Positions 5,352-64,000 are shown, counted from the first letter of the stretch. The stretch is 64,000 nt of DNA from Hymenobacteraceae bacterium (GCA_031426455.1 JANPLI010000211.1:3153-67152), one strand, 5' to 3'. Made by a program: numbers and translations. The notes: a model not told the origin generated them from the sequence alone.

Positions 5352-5432
5352 TTGAATGAATACGCAGCAAAAAGGCACATCAACTTCCGGCGGGCTGGCG
5401 CAACGACGCGTTTCGCCCTACCTTGCCCGTCG

Positions 5433-5726
5433 ATGCGCACCCAGGCCTGGCTGTATTTTTTGCTATTTGAAGCGGGCAGCTACGCCCTGCTGACGCTACT
5501 GTTACGCGGCGTGGGCTACGACGATCAATGGACCCCTGACAACACCATTACCGCCAATTGGGTCAAAGCGGTGTGGTTTTTACTCGGTCACCTGCTGCTT
5601 ACCCTGGCTGGCTACCTGGCCCTGAGTCAGCGCCTGCCCCAGAAATACCGCGCGCAGGCGTTGCCCTGGTTCGGCCGTTCGCTACTCGCAATGCTGGTCG
5701 AACTGGTGGTGCTGATGGGTTTCTAG
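5433..5726 (+). CDS. Small membrane protein, unknown function
   Basis: ATG at 5433 gives a 97-aa product with three hydrophobic helices. The upstream part of track ORF 5268..5726 overlaps the divergent gene. Confidence 0.45.
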   Translation: MRTQAWLYFLLFEAGSYALLTLLLRGVGYDDQWTPDNTITANWVKAVWFLLGHLLLTLAGYLALSQRLPQKYRAQALPWFGRSLLAMLVELVVLMGF

Positions 5727-5788
5727 TTGCTGGTTTCTGGTTGCTTGATTCCGAACAAACCAGAAACAAGCAACCAGAAACAAGCAAC
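5726..5788. terminator. Bidirectional stem-loop between convergent genes; arms built from GGTTTCT/CAAGCAAC-type short repeats
   Basis: gttgctggtttctggttgcttg ... caagcaaccagaaacaagcaac. Lies between the stop at 5726 (+) and the ppa stop at 5792 (-). Confidence 0.6.
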
Positions 5789-5791
5789 TCC

Positions 5792-6340
5792 TCAACCCAT
5801 TACCTCGCGCGGGGTGTCTTCGTAGAGCTTGATGGCGCGCCGGATGATTTCCAGCGCCTCCTCGCGGCCGAGGAAGTTTTCGACTACCACCGTCTTGCCT
5901 TCCAGCTTTTTGTAGTCTTCGTAGAAACCCCGGATTTCGAGCAGCATATGCGGCGGCAGGTCCGAAAGGTCGTTGAGGTGATTGACGGACTGGTCGTTCG
6001 CCGCCACGGCGATGATCTTGTCGTCTTCTTCATTGGCGTCGATCATCTGCATCACGCCGATAACTTTGGCTTCGAGCAGGCACATCGGCGGCACATCCAC
6101 CGAGCAGAGGACCATAATGTCGAGGGGGTCCTTGTCGTCGCAGTACGTACGCGGAATGAAGCCGTAAGCCGCCGGGTAATGGACGGCCGAGAACAGCACG
6201 CGGTCGAGTTTGAGCAGGCCGCTGGCCTTGTCCAGTTCGTATTTGCCGCGCGAGCCTTTTGGAATTTCGATGATGGCCTGCACGGTTTCGGGCGTGTTGT
6301 CGCCGTAATGAACGTCGTGCCAGGGGCTGAAAAGCGCCAT
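5792..6340 (-). CDS. ppa: Inorganic pyrophosphatase (family I)
   Basis: 182 aa. Contains [24 protein letters not shown] and [21 protein letters not shown], typical of soluble PPase. Confidence 0.95.
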
Positions 6341-24722: not shown

Positions 24723-26735
<2,013 letters not shown>

Positions 26736-26922
26736 CAGGGGAAGGGGCAATACGTGAAAACGATGTTGGCGGGGCGAAGGTAGGCGGCGGCGGCGAAGCT
26801 AGGAAGTGTCGGCCGTCAGAAGGCGTGTACGGGCGCAACGCCGGATAAGCCAACCGAAGTCGAGCCGCCGCCTACCTTCGCCGCCTTCTGCGCTGATAAT
26901 CTTTTGACTTGCTTCTGTACGG

Positions 26923-27792
26923 ATGCAACAGGTTTTAATTCTGGGCGGCACCACCTTCGACCATATCGTGTCGCTGCCCGTGCTGCCGCCGCCGGTGCCG
27001 CAAACCATTCATCAGGCGCCGCTGCACGAGGGCACCGGCTCGACGGGCGCCGGCAAAGCCCTCGCCCTGACGAAGCTTGGCGTGCCCAACACGCTGGTTT
27101 CTGCCGTCGGCGATGACGCCTACGGGCATCATATCATCAACGACTTAGCCGCGCAGGGCATTGACCTGCGCTACCGCTTCGACCCGGCCGGTACCGAGCG
27201 CCATATCAACCTGATGGATGCGCAGGGGGGGCGAATCTCGCTTTTCGTCACGCAGTCATCGGAAGAAATCGCTTTCGAGGAAGCCGCGCTGATGGGGCTG
27301 ATCCAGGCTGCTGACTTCATCGTGCTCAATATCATTCCGTATTGCCGCCCCCTGATTCCGCTGCTGGCCGGTTACGAAGGGCCCATTTGGACGGACCTGC
27401 ACGACTACGACGGCATCAACCCCTATCATCAGCCCTTTATCAACGCGGCGCAGTTCATCCATCTTTCTTCTGACAACCTGCCCGACTACCGCACGACGAT
27501 GGAACGCCTGCGTAGTGCCGGCAAGGAGCTGATTATCTGCACCCACGGCCGCGCCGGCGCTACGCTGCTAACGGCCGCCGGCGAGTGGCTGGAGCAGCCC
27601 GCTTTTCCGGTAGCACAAGTGGTGGATGCCAACGGCGCCGGCGATTCTTTTTTCGCGGGTTTTTTATACGGCTGGCTGCGCCAGGAGCCGCTAGCCACGT
27701 GCCTGCACTACGGCGCCGTGTGCGGGGCTGCCTGCGTAACGACGCGCGGCCTGGTGGCGGACGGGCTGAGTCCGGCGCTGCTGCGGGCGTGA
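26923..27792 (+). CDS. PfkB-family carbohydrate kinase
   Basis: 289 aa. GAGKALALTKLG and the C-terminal motif DANGAGDSFFAGFLYG. Confidence 0.8.
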   Translation: MQQVLILGGTTFDHIVSLPVLPPPVPQTIHQAPLHEGTGSTGAGKALALTKLGVPNTLVSAVGDDAYGHHIINDLAAQGIDLRYRFDPAGTERHINLMDAQGGRISLFVTQSSEEIAFEEAALMGLIQAADFIVLNIIPYCRPLIPLLAGYEGPIWTDLHDYDGINPYHQPFINAAQFIHLSSDNLPDYRTTMERLRSAGKELIICTHGRAGATLLTAAGEWLEQPAFPVAQVVDANGAGDSFFAGFLYGWLRQEPLATCLHYGAVCGAACVTTRGLVADGLSPALLRA

Positions 27793-52236: not shown

Positions 52237-54546
<2,310 letters not shown>

Positions 54547-54862
54547 CTACGGCCGGCCGGCCGGGTGGGGCGTGGATGCCCGACACGATTTTCGCTGCTT
54601 TTCCTTTGCCGGGTTCCGTTCTCCCGTCCGTCGCCTGCTGCGCGCCGTAAGGGCGCACTTTAGCCTTTCACAAGCCCAGTTAGCCCCGTGGCTGGGCGTT
54701 TCGCGGCGGCTCGTGACCTACGCCGAACACGGGCAACGCACCCTGATTGCTGCGATTACGGCCTGCAAAGCGGCCCTGTCAAGACAGGATGGAATGGGTG
54801 AAAAAGGGCGCGCGCTCCTGGCCGCAAGGCTGGGGGCGGTTTTGCTATGCTGGATGGGCTGC

Positions 54863-57493
54863 TTACACTTCCGTCGGTTTTTCTACCACATCGTAGTCGA
54901 TGCCTAAGGCGGCGAAATGTGCTTTGCCACACTGAATTTTCGCCCACTCGCCGGCCCGAAGCTTTAGCTCTTCCTTGCTGCCTTTGGTTTCGCGCACCAT
55001 ATACACCCGCGCATCATCGTCTTTCACGATGGCCCAGTCGGGGTTGTAATTGCCTAAGGGAGTAGGAATCTGAAACCAGCCCGGCAGCTTCAGGAAAAGA
55101 CGAATGTCGTCGCGTCCGCTCATCGTTTGGGCAAACTCGCGCTCCACATTCGAGTCCACGGCTACGGCGTCGTAGATGCTGTGTTGCACGTCCACCATCT
55201 CTTCGAGGGCGGCTGTAATCTCCTGTTCTTCGAACAGGCGCATCTCGTAGTCCTGCTCGGGCAGGCGCTCGTACTTGATGCCGCCTTCTACCATCAATTG
55301 GCGCAGTTCGGTCTGGATGGCCTGTTGCGCCTGCTCCAGAAACTGCTGCGGGTTGCGGGGCACTTCGGCCAGGCGCCCGCTTCGTTGCAGAATGGCAGCC
55401 AGCGTCTGGCGCGTCAACTCGGTGTGTTGCTGTAAGTAGCCGAGCAAGTCGGGCACGGGCTGCGGCGCGTAGGGGGCAGGCTCGGCGTCGCGCACGGTCA
55501 ATAGCTGCGTTTCCAGCCCCTCGTCGGTCAGCGTCAGGCGGCTTTTCTGCACTTCCAGCTTGACGGGTTGCAGCTTGGGGCGCTGGGCCAGATTGCGGGC
55601 CGCTCGTACGATCAGCTCTTCCGTGTCGAAGGCCACGGCGTAGCGGGTGCGCTGCTTGAGACGGTTCCAGAGGGCGAGGAAGTCGGCGTTGAGCTGCCAA
55701 CCGGGGTGCAGGCGTGCGGTGCGGGTTTTCTTCTTGTTGGTGATGCGACCCGCGAACGACACGCCGCACTCTTCTTCGATTTCGGTCTGGAGTTGCCGCG
55801 CGAAATCGTCGTAGTGCTCGTTGGCGATGATGGTGAGGCGGTTGATCGTTTCGTCGTGGCAGCGCTCGCCATTGGCCAGCACGGGCAGGCGCAGCCCACG
55901 CCCGATTTCCTGCCGCTTCTTGATTTCCGACCGCGTTTCGTTGAGGGTGCAGATCTGGAAGACGTTGGGGTTGTCCCAGCCTTCGCGCAGGGCCGAATGA
56001 CTGAAAATGAAGCGTACCGGCTCCTCCGGCGACAGCAGCCGCTCTTTGTCGCGCATAATCAGCTCGTAGGCTTCATCGTCGGCGGCGGAGTCGCCCCGGG
56101 TGTCTTTCGGCGTTCCCTTGTAGGCGGCGAAGTAGCCCGCGTGGACGTCTTCCGCCGGCGGCAAGGTCAGCTTGGTGTAGCGCGGCAGGGCGGCCAGCGT
56201 GCGGTAGGCTTCTTCGAACCAGTACCGAATCTTGCCATTGAGGGCCGCGTAATTGGCAACCCGGTCGATGAAGAACAGAGACAGCACTTTCAACCGCGCG
56301 TCCGGCCCGGCCAGGCCGGGGAGAAGCTGCCCGATTTTTACTTCCCGGTCGAAGTGCTCGCGCACGGTTTCCTGAATCTGCGCCCGCATCACGTCGTCGG
56401 TACGCCCGCCGTGGCTCTGGCCGACGGTCAACTCTACGCCATTTTCGAAGCGGACGTAGCCGTCGGCGGCGTTGATTTCATCTACCACGAAGCCCCGATA
56501 GGCGGCGCGCTCGCCGGATAGCTCGAACAGGTCGGCGCCGCTGCCCTTCACGGTAAGGGTCTTGCGCTCGGGGCCGCGCCGGCCGCTGATGTCGAGCGTC
56601 AGCCGGGCCGATACCTGCGTGCGGGTGGCGCTGATGCTTTGCACGGCCACGTAGGGCTGGTTGAAATCCGGCTCATCAAGCACCGATGACACGTCGATCC
56701 GCTTGACGAGGCGCAGGTCGTAGGCGCGCACCGGGTCGAGCTTATACAGCAGGTGGTGCCGGGTGCGGTGGGTGGCCGAGTAGCGCAGCGTACAGAGCGG
56801 CGCCAGACTGGCAATGGCGAGTTGGGCGGCGTCGCTCTCCATATTCTGCGGCTCGTCGAGCACCACGATGGGCCGCGCGGCCTGGATGAACTCGATGGGC
56901 GCGCGGCCCGAAAGCTGGTCGTAGGACTGGTAGATGACGTTGGTCGCCGGCTTGTTGAAGGCGTCGATGTTCATCACCAGAATTTGCAGGGCGCTGCTCT
57001 GGGCAAACTGCCGCAGCCGGGCGTACTGGCGGGCGTCATACACCCAGGCGTCGTAGGCAACGTGGTCATACAGGGCCTGAAAATGCTCGCGCATCAGCCG
57101 CAGACTCGTCAGCACGCCCTCGCGGATGGCCACGCTCGGCACTACGATGATGAACTTGGCGAACCCGTAGCGCTGGTGCAGCTCGAAAAGCGTTCGCAGG
57201 TACACGTAGGTTTTGCCGGTGCCGGTTTCCATTTCCACCGAAAAGTGCGGCTCGCCGAGTTGCTGGCTCGCGGGCAATTGGTGCCGCTGCTGCACGGCTT
57301 GCACATTCGCCAGCAGCGTATCGGGTGCTAGCACCAGTTGGTTGCCGGTGCCTAGCTCCGTCACCAGCTCGGTGGGGGCATTTAGCGGCAGGTTGTAGGT
57401 GCCGGCCTGCGCTGGCTGCCCCGTGAAGAGGTGCAGCACGGCATCGATGGCCTCGCGCTGGTAGGGAAGGTCGGCGTCGAATCGGAGTTTCAC
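54863..57493 (-). CDS. res: Type III restriction endonuclease Res subunit (SF2 helicase plus C-terminal PD-(D/E)XK nuclease)
   Basis: Motif I METGTGKTYVY, motif II VVLDEPQNM, later SHSALREGWDNPNVF. C-terminal YNPDWAIV...MVRETKGS nuclease motif. The GTG start overlaps the upstream stop (GTGA). Confidence 0.9.
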   Translation of the reverse strand: MKLRFDADLPYQREAIDAVLHLFTGQPAQAGTYNLPLNAPTELVTELGTGNQLVLAPDTLLANVQAVQQRHQLPASQQLGEPHFSVEMETGTGKTYVYLRTLFELHQRYGFAKFIIVVPSVAIREGVLTSLRLMREHFQALYDHVAYDAWVYDARQYARLRQFAQSSALQILVMNIDAFNKPATNVIYQSYDQLSGRAPIEFIQAARPIVVLDEPQNMESDAAQLAIASLAPLCTLRYSATHRTRHHLLYKLDPVRAYDLRLVKRIDVSSVLDEPDFNQPYVAVQSISATRTQVSARLTLDISGRRGPERKTLTVKGSGADLFELSGERAAYRGFVVDEINAADGYVRFENGVELTVGQSHGGRTDDVMRAQIQETVREHFDREVKIGQLLPGLAGPDARLKVLSLFFIDRVANYAALNGKIRYWFEEAYRTLAALPRYTKLTLPPAEDVHAGYFAAYKGTPKDTRGDSAADDEAYELIMRDKERLLSPEEPVRFIFSHSALREGWDNPNVFQICTLNETRSEIKKRQEIGRGLRLPVLANGERCHDETINRLTIIANEHYDDFARQLQTEIEEECGVSFAGRITNKKKTRTARLHPGWQLNADFLALWNRLKQRTRYAVAFDTEELIVRAARNLAQRPKLQPVKLEVQKSRLTLTDEGLETQLLTVRDAEPAPYAPQPVPDLLGYLQQHTELTRQTLAAILQRSGRLAEVPRNPQQFLEQAQQAIQTELRQLMVEGGIKYERLPEQDYEMRLFEEQEITAALEEMVDVQHSIYDAVAVDSNVEREFAQTMSGRDDIRLFLKLPGWFQIPTPLGNYNPDWAIVKDDDARVYMVRETKGSKEELKLRAGEWAKIQCGKAHFAALGIDYDVVEKPTEV

Positions 57494-58086
57494 GCGGGTA
57501 GGGGAAGGGCTAAGAGCTCGTGTTCGAGCCGGCGGATGCCGCCGAGCAGGTTGCGGAAGGTGGCGGAGCGGGTGTTCATCAGGTCGAGGTGCTGGCCGAT
57601 GGCGCGCGAGCCTTCTATTTGCCGGTACGCCCCGTTGGTCAGTAGCTGCAGCTCCTGCTTGGGAGAGCCGAGCCGGTCGGGGTCACGGAAGTTTTTGGTG
57701 TGCTGGCGTTTTGCCAGCCCCCGCAGCCGCAAGGCCGTTTCCACCGCTGCGAGATCGGCCAGGTAAATCGTTTCTAATTCGGTGCAGGCGATGCGCACGA
57801 GGGCGAGGGCGGCTTTGCCGGCTTCGCGGCATTTAGCCAGCAGTTTTTCTTTCAGGTCAAGGCAGGCTGGGTAACCGTCCTGATCGCGGAGAACCAGAAA
57901 GCGAACGTGCGGCCGCCCATTATTATCAAAACGCATGGTGCGCACGAGCCGCCGTTCCAGGTCTTGTTTACCCTCGAACGGAATGAACGTGGGTGTGATG
58001 CTCGGGTGCAGCGGCAGGCGTTCGAGCAGTGATTCGAGCAGCGCCCGCGCCGATTCCTCTTCCAGCAGGAAAACCAGCTCTCTCAT
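57490..58086 (-). CDS. DUF4276-family protein (TOPRIM-like acidic motifs; predicted nuclease partner of the ATPase)
   Basis: 198 aa. MRELVFLLEEESARALLESLLERL and VRFLVLRDQDGYP. ATGA overlap with the ATPase stop and GTGA overlap with the res start. Confidence 0.75.
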   Translation of the reverse strand: MRELVFLLEEESARALLESLLERLPLHPSITPTFIPFEGKQDLERRLVRTMRFDNNGRPHVRFLVLRDQDGYPACLDLKEKLLAKCREAGKAALALVRIACTELETIYLADLAAVETALRLRGLAKRQHTKNFRDPDRLGSPKQELQLLTNGAYRQIEGSRAIGQHLDLMNTRSATFRNLLGGIRRLEHELLALPLPA

Positions 58087-59303
58087 CGCGGGTCCACTTC
58101 CTTGAAAAAGCCTTGTTTCCAGAGGTAGCCCATCTGGTCGCCTTCGGCCATATACACGGCCACCTGCTGGTTATCCTTCGCCCGGCGGATCTCGGTGCGG
58201 CCCTGCCGTTTCACGAGCCAGCAGACTTCCTGCACTTCCACGGCGTTCAGAAAATCGGGCGAGTGGGTGGCGATGAGTACCTGCCCGCCGCCGCGCGCGG
58301 TGTAATACCGAAACTCCTCCGCCAGCTCGGCCATCAACTGGGGGTAGAGGTGGTTTTCCGGCTCGTCGATGCCCAGAAAGGCGCGGGGCTTCGGGTCATA
58401 CAGTAGCAGCAGGTAGGCGAAAAGCTTGATGGTGCCGTCTGACACCTGCCGGTCCAGAAACGGCGCCTGAAACGAGCCGTCCTGAAACCGCAGAATCAGG
58501 GATCCGTCCTCCATCACCAGCGGCTCGACGCCCGCCAACCCCGGTACGAAGCGGCTCAGGCGTTCCAGCACCTTGGCGAAGATTTCCGGGTGCTGCTCAT
58601 ACAGCGTCCGCGCCACGAGCGCCAGGTTATCGCCCGATTCGGAAAGCTGCTCGGGGTCGCCGATGCGGGGCTTGCGGCCAATGGCGGCGTTGAGGTCGAA
58701 ATTGAAGAGGTGGAAGGAGGTGAGAAACTGCAATAGGGTGTTACCAAGCGTAAAGCCGGGTAACGGCCCGACAATTTTGAGCATCGGCGTTTCGGCTGAA
58801 ACCACTCCGAAAATAGAGGCTTCGTAAAGGGCGCCCAATGCTCCTTTCACGGGCGAATAGACGGCCCCGATTTTTTCCAGCTCAGGCGTACCACCTACGA
58901 AAACGCGGCCCTCTCCGTACGTGAGTAGCAGGATGGGCGAGAAGCCCGAGCGGTGTAGCCGCAACTCTTCCTGCTGAATAGGCAAGGCCGAATGCGTATC
59001 CGCAATCTTCAGCCGGTACACGAGATGCTGCTGTTCGTCCTCTACGGCAAAAGCACAGGAAACCTCAACTTCAATCACCTCCTCCTCCGCCTCCCGGCTC
59101 AGAACTTCTTTGAACCCACCGCGCATATTGAGCGCCTTGCGCACGTCATAGGTCAGGCAGTCGCGCAGGAAGCTGAAGACGTCGAAGAGCGTCGATTTGC
59201 CGGTGCCGTTGGCGCCCACTACCACCAGCATCGCCGGAATGTCGGTGAGGTGGACGTCGCGGAACGCCTTGTAGTTCTTGATTCGGAGCGATTCAATTCT
59301 CAT
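58083..59303 (-). CDS. ABC-type AAA ATPase (AAA_15/AAA_21-like, OLD/AbiL/PARIS-type ATPase class)
   Basis: ATG at 59303 (MRIESLRIKNYKAFRDV). Walker A GANGTGKST, signature-like VSDGTIKLF, Walker B FLGIDEPENHL and H-loop IATHSPDF. Confidence 0.85.
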   Translation of the reverse strand: MRIESLRIKNYKAFRDVHLTDIPAMLVVVGANGTGKSTLFDVFSFLRDCLTYDVRKALNMRGGFKEVLSREAEEEVIEVEVSCAFAVEDEQQHLVYRLKIADTHSALPIQQEELRLHRSGFSPILLLTYGEGRVFVGGTPELEKIGAVYSPVKGALGALYEASIFGVVSAETPMLKIVGPLPGFTLGNTLLQFLTSFHLFNFDLNAAIGRKPRIGDPEQLSESGDNLALVARTLYEQHPEIFAKVLERLSRFVPGLAGVEPLVMEDGSLILRFQDGSFQAPFLDRQVSDGTIKLFAYLLLLYDPKPRAFLGIDEPENHLYPQLMAELAEEFRYYTARGGGQVLIATHSPDFLNAVEVQEVCWLVKRQGRTEIRRAKDNQQVAVYMAEGDQMGYLWKQGFFKEVDPR

Positions 59304-59314
59304 CGGGCAGCCGT

Positions 59315-61246
59315 TTAGGCGGTCTTGAAGGTGACATTCAGCCCGCGCGCTTCCAGCACGGCGTTGGTTTTGAGGGCGTCGGCGTCGGGGCCTTGAAAGG
59401 CGGCGTCGAGGCAGACCACGAGTTGCGGCGGGCCGGTGGGCGGGGCCAGCAGGGCGCGCAGGGCGGCGCGGGTGAGGGGGGCGGCCACGCACAGCACCAC
59501 CCGGCCCTCGGCAAGGGTGTAGGCGGGCAGGCCGGCCGCATCGAAGGACGTCAGGGCGCTGCCCAGCGGCAGGCCGGCTTTCAGGACTAGCTCCCAGAGG
59601 CGGTCGTCGTCGGTGCGGCCGGGCGCGCGGTTATCGGCGAAAAGGGCGAGCTGCGCGGCGGGGTCGGGGGCGGTGGGGTCCCAGACGTGGAAGTTCGACG
59701 CCGCCAGACTGAACGCCCGGAAGCCGCGCCGCGCGGCGCGCGCCGGGTCAAACGTGAACGTACCGGCTTCGGCCTTATCCAGCCGGGCCACCACCCGCCG
59801 CACCCGTTCCCGCGTGATGTGCGCGATGGTGGGGTAGTCGGCTTTACCCGTCGGCTCTGGGAGCTGCACGAGGATGAAGCGGCGGTTGCCGTTGTCTTCT
59901 TCGTTCAGAGTCAGAACGGCCTCGGCTGTGGTGCCTGACCCACCGAAGAAGTCGAGGATGAGCGCTTCCTTATCGCCAGCAAGTTTAGCTAATGTTTTGA
60001 TTAGCTCCACAGGCTTAGGAGCCTGAAAAAGGCTTTTACCCATTAATGAGTCGAAAGCAGCTTGACCTTTCTCCGTGAAGAAGTTTTTTTCGTCAAGAAC
60101 ACTTTTAAGCTTTTTGGTAACATTTTCACCGGAATCTAATGTAGCATAAGCCTTGCGAAAAATCTTCCAATTACCCTCAATGTTTCTAGCGACCAACAAG
60201 TGCAGCTCTGCTTTTGCTTTGGTTGTACCCCAGGTCCAACAGCCTTCAAAGCCGTCGTTCCAAACGGGTTCAACTTTTACCCATCCATTCGTTTCGATTA
60301 ATGCAATTGATCCATCTGATGGATTGACCCAGAAAGGGTAGCATAGATTGGGACGATTGTGTTTCCCAAATTGGCGGTGAGTATTCCTTAGCTCTAACAG
60401 CCGAAATGCTCCGCGTGTATCTGATTCTGTGTACTGCTTACTAACCTCCTCATTAGATTTTGTAAGGCCAAGTTCCTGATCGGGAACCGCCCTGCTGTAT
60501 ACAAGCAGGTAGTCGTGGCATTTTGCGAAGTGTTCGCCGAGAACCCGGCCTTTGGGGTTAGTAATTACTGCAAGTTGTCCTAGCATATTCTCCTCCCCAA
60601 ACACCTCATCCATCAGCAGCCTTAGGTTATGGACTTCGTGGTCGTCGATGGAAACGAAGATCACCCCATCCTCACGCAGCAGGTTGCGGGCCAGCAGCAG
60701 GCGCGGGTACATCAGCGAGAGCCACGCTGAGTGGTAGCGCCCGCTGGTGTCGCGGTTGGTAGAAGCGGCCGTACCGGCTTCGGTGAGTTGGCCGGAGTAG
60801 CGCAGGTAGTCGGCGAGGCCCTCGCGGAAGTTGTCGGGGTAGATGAACTCGTTGCCCGTGTTGTAGGGCGGGTCGATGTAAATGAGCTTCACCTGCCCGT
60901 GGTAGGGCTTCTGGAGCAGCTTCAGCACCTCTAAGTTATCGCCTTCGATGATCGCGTTTTCGGTGGTGTCCCAGCGGACGCTATCGGCCGGCTGGGGGCG
61001 CAGCGTGGCGGTGCTAGGGGCTTTGATCTGCTGAAACGCCTCGCGCTTGCCCGCCCACGACAGGCCGTAGCGCTCGCCGTCGGTGTCGAGGGCGCCGCCC
61101 AAGGCCTCCCGCAGCCGGGCAAAGTCGATTTTTCCCTCCCGGAAAACCTGCGGGGCGGCTTCCTGCAAGTGTTGCAGCAGGTCTTGGGTGAGGTCGGGGC
61201 TGGTTAGGAGCAGCTTGTCGGGCTGCGGCGCAACGGGAGCGGGCAT
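59315..61246 (-). CDS. mod: Type III R-M DNA methyltransferase Mod subunit (beta-class N6A/N4C MTase)
   Basis: Motif IV IYIDPPYNTGNEF, a central variable region, then motif I LDFFGGSGTT. ATG at 61246 (GTG at 61273 is possible). Confidence 0.9.
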   Translation of the reverse strand: MPAPVAPQPDKLLLTSPDLTQDLLQHLQEAAPQVFREGKIDFARLREALGGALDTDGERYGLSWAGKREAFQQIKAPSTATLRPQPADSVRWDTTENAIIEGDNLEVLKLLQKPYHGQVKLIYIDPPYNTGNEFIYPDNFREGLADYLRYSGQLTEAGTAASTNRDTSGRYHSAWLSLMYPRLLLARNLLREDGVIFVSIDDHEVHNLRLLMDEVFGEENMLGQLAVITNPKGRVLGEHFAKCHDYLLVYSRAVPDQELGLTKSNEEVSKQYTESDTRGAFRLLELRNTHRQFGKHNRPNLCYPFWVNPSDGSIALIETNGWVKVEPVWNDGFEGCWTWGTTKAKAELHLLVARNIEGNWKIFRKAYATLDSGENVTKKLKSVLDEKNFFTEKGQAAFDSLMGKSLFQAPKPVELIKTLAKLAGDKEALILDFFGGSGTTAEAVLTLNEEDNGNRRFILVQLPEPTGKADYPTIAHITRERVRRVVARLDKAEAGTFTFDPARAARRGFRAFSLAASNFHVWDPTAPDPAAQLALFADNRAPGRTDDDRLWELVLKAGLPLGSALTSFDAAGLPAYTLAEGRVVLCVAAPLTRAALRALLAPPTGPPQLVVCLDAAFQGPDADALKTNAVLEARGLNVTFKTA

Positions 61247-61384
61247 CGGCGAAGAAAAAGAAGCAAGTGCCACGGGCGCGCCGGCCCAGCCAGCACCCCA
61301 CGGCCAAGCGAAGGTAATGGCAACCGTAGGTGCCGCCCGTCGCTGGTGGGCGCGCGGCTACGTTGTTCCCGCTTCCCCCAAAAC

Positions 61385-61419
61385 CAAAAAACCGGGCACA
61401 ACTCTGTTCCCGGTTTTTT
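61385..61419. terminator. Bidirectional terminator-like hairpin flanked by A- and T-runs, upstream of the R-M operon
   Basis: aaaaaaccgggcaca actc tgttcccggtttttt. Confidence 0.6.
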
Positions 61420-61738
61420 CAATCTCCTAAAACCGGGAACAACCGCCGCCGGACGCGCCGGACCAGCAGCGCGGGCAAAGTCAGATGGGGATAGACGCGT
61501 CACGGGACGGAGTGCCAGATTACCTGAGTTACACGGCCTAATCAGGCGTTCGGCTCGGCCTTGACCGCTCGCCGCCGCTGGAAAACCAGACAACAGACGG
61601 GCGTTTTACTTATGTGGGTATTCCTGATTCAGGCGGCAGCCTGGGGGGCAGGTTGCAGTTCGTGGACGTAATCCGGTTGTTGGCCCCTCAATCAAAGCTG
61701 TTGGTCGATCGGCACTTGGGGCTGGGATTTTAACGAAC

Positions 61739-61746
61739 TAGTTTTG
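61739..61746 (+). promoter_or_regulatory. Candidate -7 promoter box (TAGTTTTG = TAnnTTTG)
   Basis: Lies in an AT-rich stretch 83 nt upstream of the ATG at 61829. Confidence 0.3.
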
Positions 61747-61828
61747 TATTATCGGCAGGACTGCTCTGCTTATCAAGCACTAATACTGCTCATTGTCACT
61801 TTTCGGCTTTTAAAAGCCGTTGGTCTTT

Positions 61829-64000
61829 ATGAAAAAATCCTACCTGCTACTGCGACTTACGCTGCTGATGGGTCTGTTGGGCGGTGGCCTGACGAGGCCG
61901 CTGGCCTGGGCGCAAGTCACCCCCGACATTAGCACGACGCTCTCGGCGACGCCGGCTTCCCTCAACGCCACCGCGTCGGTGACGCTGACCGTGGGCGTGA
62001 CCAACACGGGCAGCGGTGCCGTTACAGCTACTAACGTGACCCGCACCGTGACGGGCTTACCCACGGGCCTGAGCGGGGTGACTTTCGGTGGCGCCGGAGC
62101 TGCTAACGCCACCTACAACTCCGGCGCGGGTTCCGTGACGTTCACCGGTGGGCCGTACAGCCTGGCCGCCAGCGGCGCGAGCCTCAATTATACGATTACG
62201 TTCACGGTGCCGTGCGGCACGGCGTCGTTCACGGCCACCTCGACGGTAGGCTGCACCAGCGACACCGATACCGGCAACAACACCGCTACGGCTGGGGTGA
62301 CGGTAAACAACACGACTGCACCCGCCACGCCGGGGGCGATCAGCAATACCGGCAACCCCGGAGCCCTGACCCTCTGCCGTAATGGTGCTGGTAACACGCA
62401 GAACTACGCCATCAGCGCCGTAACTGGTGCCACTAGCTATACGTGGACGATTCCTACGGCCGTAGGTAGTATTTCGGGCGGAGCGGTAGTTGGTGCCAAC
62501 AGCGTGCTGACGACCGCTTCCACCACTATCACGGTGACGCCTAACAATGCTAACTCTAACAATGCGGGCAACCTGACTGTGACGGCTAGCAACGCGTGCG
62601 GCACGAGCAGCGCTCAAACGCTGGCGCTGATTAAAGCGGCGGGGGCGCCCGGCACGCCGACTGCCATCACGAACACGGGCGGTTTGTGCGCCGGGACGCA
62701 GGTCACGTTCACCGCTACCCCGAACGGCGCTAATCCGATTGACACTTATAACTGGACGGTGCCTGCCGGCTGGACCTTGGTGTCCGGCCAGGGCACGGTC
62801 AGCATCCAGGTTACTGTAGGGACTGCCACTGGTAACTTAACGGTCATTGCCACTAACCGGTGTGGCACCAGTGGTACGCGCACGACCAGCTTTACGCCGC
62901 TCGGCATCCAGCCAACGGTTACGGGCAATCAGACGCCCTGCACCGGCTCCGTCGTGACGTACACGGCCACGGCTGGCCTAGGAACTTATGCCTGGACGCT
63001 GCCAACAGGTTATAGCGGATCCTCCGTCACGAACACGATCAACGTGACGGTGGGCGCCAGCGCCGGCAATGGTACCATCAGCGCGACGGCCACTTCCGGC
63101 GGCTGTACTTCCACGCCCGGGACGCTGGCGATCACGCCAACCCAGACGCCCACGCAGCCAGCGGTTATCAGCGGCAGCACAACGCCTTGCCAGAACTCGA
63201 CGGGTAATATTTATTCGGTCGCTTCAGTGCCGGCAGGCGAAACTTATACCTGGTCGTACAGCGTCGCGGGCGCCACCTTCCCTGGCGGCAACACTGGCGC
63301 GAGCGTGAGCGTCTCGTTCGCGGCTGGCGCAGGCAATGGTAACCTGATCATCACGCCCACGGCTGGCACTGCGCCGATTTGCAGCGGCCCAATCCGCACG
63401 TTGGCGCTGACGCCGCTCGGCGCGCCGCCGACACCCAGCGCGATTTCCGGAGCTGCCGCACCGTGCGTCAGTTCGTCGCGGACGTATTCGGTAACGAACG
63501 TTGCCGGGCTGACTTATACCTGGGTGGTGCCAGCGGCGGTCGGCACGATTTCGTCTGGCCAGGGCACGAATAGCATTACCGTGGCCACGGCCGGCACCAC
63601 CGGCACGGGTAATATCACGGTGACGGCTACTTATACGGGCTGCACGACTGCTAGTGCGGCCAGCACCCGGAGTGTGACCTCCGTCGCGTCTTTGCCCGCT
63701 TCTGCCGCCATCGCCGGTCCGGCCGCCCCGTGCGCGGGCGCGACGGGCATCGTTTACACGGCTACGGCAGTAACGGGCGCCGTTTCGTATCAATGGAGCG
63801 TGACCGGCACCGGCTGGAGCATCACGGCCAACGCCACCACCGCGGCGCCCACCTTTACGGTAGGCTCCGGTCCCGGTACTCTGACCGTGGCGGCCGTGAA
63901 CGACTGCGGTCCCGGCGCTACCCAGACCCGGATCATCACGCCTACCAGCGCTATTCCAGCCCAGCCGGGTGCCATTTCGGGGTCTGGTTCGATTTACATC
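61829..64000 (+). CDS. Large secreted repeat protein (5' part; continues beyond the window): DUF11-like N-terminal module then at least 8 tandem ~85-aa PKD-like Cys-pair modules
   Basis: Not in the ORF track because it has no stop in the window. My translation from ATG 61829 starts MKKSYLLLRLTLLMGLLGGGLTRPLAWAQ (signal peptide). Repeated modules follow of the form P..I.G....C.G.....Y......GA..Y.W..P.G......G.G...I.V.....GN..V.A.N.CG.S. No stop through 64000. Confidence 0.75.
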   Translation, partial: MKKSYLLLRLTLLMGLLGGGLTRPLAWAQVTPDISTTLSATPASLNATASVTLTVGVTNTGSGAVTATNVTRTVTGLPTGLSGVTFGGAGAANATYNSGAGSVTFTGGPYSLAASGASLNYTITFTVPCGTASFTATSTVGCTSDTDTGNNTATAGVTVNNTTAPATPGAISNTGNPGALTLCRNGAGNTQNYAISAVTGATSYTWTIPTAVGSISGGAVVGANSVLTTASTTITVTPNNANSNNAGNLTVTASNACGTSSAQTLALIKAAGAPGTPTAITNTGGLCAGTQVTFTATPNGANPIDTYNWTVPAGWTLVSGQGTVSIQVTVGTATGNLTVIATNRCGTSGTRTTSFTPLGIQPTVTGNQTPCTGSVVTYTATAGLGTYAWTLPTGYSGSSVTNTINVTVGASAGNGTISATATSGGCTSTPGTLAITPTQTPTQPAVISGSTTPCQNSTGNIYSVASVPAGETYTWSYSVAGATFPGGNTGASVSVSFAAGAGNGNLIITPTAGTAPICSGPIRTLALTPLGAPPTPSAISGAAAPCVSSSRTYSVTNVAGLTYTWVVPAAVGTISSGQGTNSITVATAGTTGTGNITVTATYTGCTTASAASTRSVTSVASLPASAAIAGPAAPCAGATGIVYTATAVTGAVSYQWSVTGTGWSITANATTAAPTFTVGSGPGTLTVAAVNDCGPGATQTRIITPTSAIPAQPGAISGSGSIYI

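Follow-up and report, generated by a model that had tools for sequence, protein, structure and literature searches.

A candidate HEC-01 gene pair between mod and res of a Type III restriction-modification operon in a Hymenobacteraceae bacterium

In a Type III restriction-modification (R-M) operon, mod is expected to be followed directly by res. In a 64,000-nucleotide (nt) stretch of DNA from a Hymenobacteraceae bacterium (GCA_031426455.1 JANPLI010000211.1:3153-67152), which was analysed whole and is called the window herein, the two genes are 1.8 kb apart, on one strand and in one operon, and between them lie two further genes, one for an ATP-binding cassette (ABC) ATPase and the other for a protein of the DUF4276 family. 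The question raised by this locus is whether the pair is a working part of the restriction enzyme, a guard of it, or a module of its own housed by the operon. We favour the last answer, with a probability of roughly 0.6: a composite operon, in which a functional Type III R-M system would carry an autonomous HEC-01-type module, inserted where mod meets res, at a hotspot for cargo. The features of the operon, in window coordinates, are the following.

59315-61246, minus strand: mod, Type III DNA methyltransferase, 643 amino acids (aa) from an ATG, with an in-frame GTG at 61273 as alternative start
59304-59314, minus strand: spacer of 11 nt from the mod stop TAA to the ATPase ATG, read from the sequence
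58083-59303, minus strand: ABC ATPase of the candidate HEC-01 pair, 406 aa
57490-58086, minus strand: DUF4276 protein of the candidate HEC-01 pair, a predicted Toprim-fold protein and putative nuclease, 198 aa
54863-57493, minus strand: res, Type III restriction endonuclease/helicase, 876 aa, GTG start
61274-61830, minus strand: upstream non-coding region of the mod operon; a divergent plus-strand gene begins at about 61831

An original prediction, made for this stretch beforehand, had placed four minus-strand genes at these coordinates, with the 11-nt spacer and two short overlaps, and both the list of open reading frames (ORFs) and a direct reading of the sequence agree with it. The ATPase stop and the DUF4276 start share the ATGA at 58083-58086, and the DUF4276 stop and the res start share the GTGA at 57490-57493. 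The ATPase start at 59303 was favoured over the GTG at 59492 given in the mechanical ORF list (58083-59492), because 68 homologues of 395-397 aa begin at the aligned M1. That an ABC ATPase together with a Toprim-type DUF4276 protein is wired between the mod and res of a Type III operon, as had also been proposed, was borne out by profile matches. The same arrangement recurs, with Mod and Res homologues, in five further genomes, and more distant versions of the pair lie between mod and res in two metagenomic loci (L166 and L103), so it is not a chance juxtaposition.

Judged by their motifs and profile matches, mod and res look intact as a Type III R-M pair, and it is the layout, not the enzymes, that departs from the type. 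Mod matched the Pfam family N6_N4_Mtase (PF01555; 4.9e-29) and the PADLOC model MTase_III (PDLC03634; 1.2e-164 over residues 10-639), and the N6/N4 amino-methyltransferase motifs were found as DPPY at residue 125 and FGGSG at 434. In Res, a superfamily 2 helicase part and a PD-(D/E)xK nuclease part were both recognized, with matches to Pfam ResIII (7.4e-12) and to a C-terminal RE_endonuc (2.2e-34), to PADLOC REase_III (5.8e-270) and to NCBIfam PRK15483, a Type III endonuclease model (1.6e-94); its motifs are GTGKT at 91, DEPQ at 213 and PD...ETK at 818. In biochemical terms, Type III systems are further characterized by hemimethylation through Mod and by an ATP-dependent cleavage for which two unmethylated sites in inverse orientation are needed. 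The guanine-cytosine (GC) content, about 0.63 around mod, drops inside the central part of the gene (59986-61000), to 0.517 at 60001-61000. In three related operons (L012, L027 and L088), the 5' part of mod (about 650 bp) and its 3' part align at 84-93% DNA identity, while the central 600 bp or so are unalignable. The central part of mod thus looks like a swapped target-recognition domain, and hence like a swapped sequence specificity.

The first protein of the pair has the sequence features of an ABC ATPase. It matched the Pfam families AAA_21 (2.3e-30), AAA_15 (3.8e-20) and SMC_N, and the PADLOC models PDLC04144 (4.9e-145 over 1-406) and PDLC04182 (9.4e-105). A Walker A motif (GANGTGKS at 30), a signature (SDG at 288), a Walker B (D313-E314) and an H-loop (THS at 346) were located, all of them at invariant columns of the alignment. 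An AlphaFold2 (AF2) model was obtained with a pLDDT (predicted local distance difference test) score of 78.6, and its top Foldseek matches were the retron-associated ATPase/PtuA, Rad50, SMC heads, OLD and GajA, with E-values of about 1e-10. This fold comparison did not separate an AriA-like ATPase from PtuA-, OLD- or GajA-like ones, as all ABC heads gave template modelling (TM) scores of 0.4-0.5. Sequence searches of solved structures returned nothing informative for either protein of the pair.

The second protein is, according to its structural model, of the Toprim fold and a putative nuclease. Against Pfam DUF4276 it scored 7e-07 and 30.1 bits, just under the cut-off of 30.2, and against the PADLOC HEC-01 model PDLC04143 it gave 2.4e-74 over residues 1-192. 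The search for homologues returned 2,397 proteins, and those listed carry the precomputed annotation PF14103. Its AF2 model (pLDDT 91.4) has a beta-alpha-beta-alpha-beta-alpha-beta core, with strands at residues 2-8, 30-36, 61-68 and 95-100, and its only significant matches in the Protein Data Bank were to the C-terminal Toprim-containing region of the Burkholderia pseudomallei OLD, the best being 6NK8 (E 1.3e-4, TM 0.56). Model and alignment together give the hallmarks of the Toprim superfamily, namely a four-stranded parallel sheet core, a Glu that follows beta-1 and a DxD that follows beta-3; the corresponding residues E9, E10, D68 and D70 are invariant across 94 homologues. Membership of DUF4276 in this superfamily has also been published (PMC12065111; Payne et al., bioRxiv 10.1101/2024.01.29.577857). 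The domain calls of the original prediction for all four proteins were matched by the profile searches, and the nuclease-like fold on which it relied was seen in the AF2 model and by Foldseek, catalysis being a prediction only.

The middle pair is assigned by sequence to the candidate system HEC-01, already catalogued in PADLOC: its two genes, one for an ABC ATPase and the other for a DUF4276/Toprim protein, are neighbours, and the two products match the hidden Markov models of HEC-01 end to end. The name stands for "Hma-embedded candidate 01", an ABC ATPase together with a Toprim protein, nested in Hma operons (bioRxiv 10.1101/2024.01.29.577857). The window pair shares with these cassettes the two-gene composition and the nesting inside another defence operon by which HEC-01 is defined. 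It differs in the host, as the defining cassettes are embedded in Hma operons (helicase, 5-methylcytosine (m5C) methylase and ATPase), whereas the host here is a Type III operon, entered between mod and res. We also considered the host operon as a Hma system and rejected it: HmaB is an m5C methyltransferase, whereas the window Mod is of the N6_N4_Mtase/MTase_III type, and no Hma model was among the matches listed, which comprised the best 25 of 33 for Mod and all 12 for Res.

Published work has described defence genes nested within defence operons of four kinds, namely Hma, BREX, DISARM and Type I R-M. These hosts were surveyed by Payne et al., who did not cover Type III (bioRxiv 10.1101/2024.01.29.577857), and PrrC in EcoprrI is the classic embedded case (PMC12707154). 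In the searchable literature, itself incomplete, we found no report of the Type III mod-res junction as an embedding site, which is absence of evidence only. The HEC-01 pair and the nesting of defence genes are therefore known, and it is the insertion site between mod and res that appears undescribed.

To place the pair in other genomes, the DUF4276 protein was used to scan one genome per species, which yielded 196 relatives, and of their loci the best 80 were retained. The scan included an 86% match to a metagenome-assembled genome of Hymenobacteraceae, which, with a GC content of about 63%, points to a Hymenobacter-like member of the Bacteroidota as the source of the window. Flanking genes were called by our own script, in which ORFs were scored by length and codon-position GC bias, and they were then clustered and the cluster representatives annotated. 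Each scan kept its best 80 loci, and the fractions given herein are estimates for close relatives. The ATPase gene lies directly upstream of the DUF4276 gene in all 80 loci, and the 4-nt overlap between them was found in six of six Type III-embedded loci (the window, L001, L003, L012, L025 and L027). The mod-[pair]-res order was found in five of the 80 loci (the same five besides the window), with Res proteins 66-75% identical to that of the window. Type I hsd operons host or adjoin the pair in another 24, in 14 of which the pair is enclosed by hsd genes, typically in the order hsdR-hsdS-[pair]-hsdM. In the 51 remaining loci the neighbours are others, mostly housekeeping genes such as purD, malate synthase, gcvP, sucAB and ilvA, with a few defence genes among them (Type IIG, JetA, PDC-S18 and PDC-S05). 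A link between the pair and R-M genes in other genomes, which the original prediction needed, was thus present, 29 of the 80 loci lying within or next to operons of Type I or Type III. The association is strong (36% of loci) and not obligatory.

Trees of the pair and of Res were built by neighbour joining, without support values. In the tree of the concatenated pair, the Type III-embedded copies form two groups, the first made of the window and L001, both Hymenobacteraceae-like, and the second betaproteobacterial and including two copies (L046 and L051) that are flanked by housekeeping genes only. The Type I-embedded copies are dispersed among copies from other contexts. Among metagenomic loci, the window pair has its closest relative in L168 (ATPase 68% and DUF4276 82% identical), on a 6.3-kb contig that holds no Mod or Res match. 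Just downstream of the pair, this contig has a second ORF (5402-6319) with a weak ABC-ATPase similarity to the window ATPase, limited to the N- and C-terminal motifs, and this ORF may be part of a tandem ATPase-based module. A distant ATPase and DUF4276 pair, the latter 39% identical, was also seen on plasmid pSYSM of Synechocystis PCC 6803 (25994-27735; L169), in a stretch resembling a defence island, with MNT/DUF86, RelE/HigA, a cysteine desulfurase and a 'DNA phosphorothioation-associated putative methyltransferase' as neighbours. The DUF4276 protein had no homologue among 50,697 phage records and only seven distant matches in plasmids; there is thus no sign that phages or satellites carry this subfamily in the way they carry PARIS.

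One Type III lineage gave direct evidence that modules are swapped at the mod-res junction. In four of its operons, the mod ends and the res genes are 83-93% identical in DNA, and their contents differ. L012 reads MNT-HepT, mod, [pair], res; L027 reads mod, [pair], res, as does L003; L025 reads mod, MNT-HepT, [pair], res; and L088 reads mod, MNT-HepT, res, without the pair. The toxin-antitoxin-like genes for MNT (NTP_transf_2) and HepT/HEPN are 80-86% identical in DNA in the three operons that have them (L012 4102-4753, L025 1517-2168 and L088 6369-7020), and within a single lineage they take up three positions: 5' of mod in L012, after mod and ahead of the HEC-01 pair in L025, and by themselves at the mod-res junction in L088. 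Compared with L012 and L027, the mod and res of L088 are 84-93% identical in DNA (res 87-89%) and the pair is lacking; this Type III lineage therefore exists without it.

These observations bear on the independence of the pair. Because 51 of the 80 loci have other neighbours, including L046 and L051 inside the Type III-associated clade, and because the pair is missing from a near-identical Type III operon, the comparison of sequences points to an autonomous and mobile module, not to a Type III subunit. An obligate dependence is disfavoured, since the pair is often away from R-M genes and hosts of Type I and of Type III share the same subfamily.

The junction was then surveyed from the side of the host. 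A metagenome scan with Res added 80 loci, and in 71 loci both the N-terminus of Res and a Mod homologue upstream of it are present. For these 71, the spacing between the mod stop and the res start has a bimodal distribution: 33 are at 60 bp or less, none at 61-300, three at 301-600 and 35 above 600. The 38 interrupted junctions carry cargo of 0.3-4.9 kb, comprising 66 ORFs in 47 sequence clusters, and all but one of these ORFs (65/66) are co-directional with mod and res. To judge by its annotation, this cargo is dominated by defence-type genes. AAA_21 was found in nine and AAA_15 in six, with the PADLOC names mad3-like, AriA-like, NsnB, Old, AbiLi and HEC-01; Schlafen/AlbA_2 in six; RhuM, YhcG PDDEXK and GmrSD_N in three each; DUF4276 in two; and Dcm plus Vsr in two. 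Further cargo comprised MNT-HepT, Fic, DUF3644, DUF4160-DUF2442, Type IIG methylase-like proteins and HEC-05.

Plasmids gave the same picture, with mod and res adjacent in Hydrogenophilus, Cupriavidus and Providencia, and with GmrSD/HEC-05 (Planctomycetes), DUF262 (Rhizobium), PDDEXK (Chryseobacterium) or RhuM (Thiodictyon) between them. Three plasmid relatives (L083, L086 and L087) have in addition one or more genes directly before mod, either for a SNF2-related protein or for a helicase and a DUF4391 protein, which suggests that larger three- or four-gene variants of this Type III system exist. In the Res tree, six of the nine members of the window clade hold HEC-01, the rest carrying Fic, an AAA_21 protein or MNT-HepT, and the sister branches have no cargo, or DUF3644 or GmrSD. 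The distant pairs of L166 and L103 sit at the junction in other Res clades, from which it follows that HEC-01-type cargo has entered it more than once.

How does the pair relate to known ATPase and Toprim systems? The original prediction had likened it to the two-gene modules of OLD-family nucleases, AbiL and PARIS, and profile, fold and motif evidence agrees with a place in the OLD, PARIS, AbiL and MADS3-4 class, the relation being distant. The PARIS paper likewise groups MADS3-4 and AbiL among ABC-ATPase and Toprim systems. From the OLD family (class 1, P2 Old; class 2, Gabija GajA), it shares the Toprim fold of 6NK8 and an ATPase fold that matches OLD and GajA; there, ATPase and Toprim are fused in one chain, while in the window they are separate genes, with no UvrD-like partner. 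PARIS is, like the pair, a two-gene system in which an ABC ATPase accompanies a Toprim nuclease, and the window ATPase shares the AAA_21 region of AriA (8.7e-30). This match is partial (residues 236-353) and an AriB match is lacking, so the pair falls outside PARIS: the AriB Toprim is DUF4435, the window effector is DUF4276, and AriB models gave no match to the latter at E ≤0.01. The carriers also differ, since PARIS is typically found on P4-like satellites and phages.

The MADS system of Pseudomonas aeruginosa comes close in architecture, with Mad3/Mad4 being an AAA_15/21 ABC ATPase and a DUF4276 Toprim protein inside a defence operon that contains a methyltransferase; the homology of Mad4 to DUF4276 is stated in PMC12065111. 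It also provides the model for another explanation, in which the pair would be a working part of a methylation-dependent restriction machine, a four-component system comparable to MADS. Deletion of mad3 or mad4 weakens MADS defence, and mad5 can be deleted only when mad2 or mad3 is also gone; the window ATPase matches the MAD3 models (1.4e-31 in NCBIfam and 5e-22 in PADLOC), and its four genes are tightly coupled. The score of 110 bits is, however, far under the MAD3 (NF047739) equivalog cut-off of 420, and the DUF4276 protein matched no Mad4 model at E ≤0.01. MADS has eight genes, of which Mad6-8 are mandatory, whereas the window operon, whose flanks were not scanned with MAD6-8 models, has four only; it was thus not assigned to MADS. 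Moreover, Mod and Res hold all canonical motifs, relatives function as adjacent two-gene operons, the pair is away from R-M genes in the 51 loci mentioned above, and L088 is the same operon lineage without it. We therefore consider a role as an integrated subunit improbable.

The explanation offered by the original prediction is that of a back-up or guard of the Type III enzyme, which might sense anti-restriction proteins. In the form considered here, the pair would monitor the Type III enzyme, being kept inactive by Mod/Res or sensing anti-restriction proteins, and would mount an abortive response once restriction is blocked. There are precedents in PrrC with EcoprrI and in PARIS with Ocr (PMC12707154; Payne et al., bioRxiv 10.1101/2024.01.29.577857), and MADS shows that Mad3/Mad4 can be tied functionally to a methylation system. 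Embedding and translational coupling, the placing of 29 among the 80 close homologues inside or next to R-M operons and, suggestively, the retention of HEC-01 cargo across a Res clade spanning two phyla agree with such a role. The pair resembles PrrC of the EcoprrI Type IC hsd locus, and the 'restriction-linked ORFs' RloA/RloB of Campylobacter Type I loci, in being an ABC-ATPase-based module inside an R-M operon. PrrC is, however, a single polypeptide with an anticodon-nuclease domain that is physically silenced by EcoprrI, whereas the present locus combines two proteins, the effector being of the Toprim type, with a Type III host; no sign of a masking of the pair by its host enzyme was seen, and of the traits of a PrrC-type guardian only embedding was observed. 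Around most close homologues, the two nearest genes on each side include no R-M gene, the same subfamily occurs in Type I and Type III operons, whose enzymes are unrelated, some 47 unrelated cargo families use the same junction, and a near-identical operon does without the pair. On balance, guarding seems unlikely, if less so than incorporation into the restriction machine.

We return to the composite operon as the preferred reading. According to it, Mod would methylate, Res would translocate and cut, and a two-gene HEC-01 module would have been acquired at the mod-res junction, which in this Type III family would be a recurrent landing site where defence-type cargos are exchanged. By analogy with PARIS, OLD, Gabija and AbiL, we infer an anti-phage function for the pair, its division into sensor and effector, and its trigger: the ABC ATPase, as presumed sensor or scaffold, would most likely restrain or control the DUF4276 Toprim nuclease, the presumed effector, until a phage cue leads to cleavage of nucleic acid, and release of the nuclease would provide a second line of defence. 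As the four genes are translationally coupled, the module would be expressed and inherited together with the R-M genes, and yet be independent of them.

Several points weigh against this reading. The neighbour classes depend on a home-made gene caller and on the best 80 loci of each scan. HEC-01 is the commonest cargo of the window Res clade, and the trees of the pair and of Res roughly match each other across both Bacteroidota and Betaproteobacteria; functional cooperation would yield the same prevalence and congruence. Autonomy cannot rest on homology alone, because MADS defence needs its homologous Mad3/Mad4 pair. Finally, the HEC-01 representative tested by Payne et al. protected against none of the phages tried (bioRxiv 10.1101/2024.01.29.577857), so the anti-phage activity of the family rests on one report with a different homologue, which gave E. 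coli protection from one or more of T7, T5 and T4 (bioRxiv 10.1101/2024.09.26.614923).

The negative result would suit a pair that has no role in phage defence here, at a junction that merely tolerates co-directional inserts, where the ride with R-M genes favours co-transfer and retention. The marked heterogeneity and fast turnover of the cargo are compatible with this, and its nearly universal co-direction fits keeping res expressed as the sole constraint. Nevertheless, the cargo families are overwhelmingly of the defence or toxin type and not random genes, the second HEC-01 homologue did protect, and the catalytic residues of both pair proteins are invariant in at least 69-94 homologues, which argues for selection on activity. 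A mere passenger is accordingly hard to credit.

A more ambitious, joint proposal is that the mod-res junction of this widespread Type III family is a general and apparently undescribed exchange site for defence cargo and that HEC-01 is, at the same time, co-inherited with Res in the window clade, in Bacteroidota as in Betaproteobacteria, through functional cooperation. We regard the two together as a tentative possibility, on the doubtful side. If they were true, the junction could be mined by guilt-by-embedding in the way of Hma, BREX, DISARM and Type I operons, as a source of 47 or more cargo families, many of which lack annotation, and HEC-01 would either guard the Type III enzyme against inhibition or join in methylation-gated killing, as Mad3/Mad4 do in MADS.

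The surroundings of the operon were also inspected. Promoter and terminator scans of the region stayed at background level, and a sigma-70-like match upstream of mod (61776-61748) is no more than expected by chance. About 115 nt 5' of the mod start, within the 560-nt non-coding leader, there is a near-perfect hairpin (61386-61419; AAAAAACCGGGCACA / TGTTCCCGGTTTTTT), flanked on both sides by A and T runs and resembling a bidirectional terminator, for which no Rfam match was found. Searches for direct and inverted repeats, attachment sites and Rfam families flanking the operon returned only short repeats at chance level. The divergent plus-strand ORF (about 61831-64000) has a signal-peptide-like N-terminus (MKKSYLLLRLTLLMGLLGG) and appears to extend past the end of the window, for which reason it is absent from the ORF list; it probably encodes a large secreted or surface protein. 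Downstream of res, the ORFs were read by eye as ligA and dapA. Two copies of a perfect 14-nt GC palindrome (CGGCCGGCCGGCCG), 18 nt apart within 54518-54563, lie at the 5' end of the 765-aa ORF taken by eye as ligA, adjoining the spacer between res and ligA.

As to how ATPase/Toprim modules work, the locus brings nothing categorically new. What it does is extend the published idea of embedded defence to Type III operons, and offer a compact natural four-gene operon in which to ask whether ABC-ATPase/Toprim modules cooperate with the restriction enzyme of their host. Near-identical operons without the pair or with other cargo (L088, L025 and L012) provide natural controls for that question. With cargo in about half of the operons of this family, and with several of the cargo clusters unannotated, Type III operons may be further anchors for the discovery of defence genes through guilt-by-embedding.

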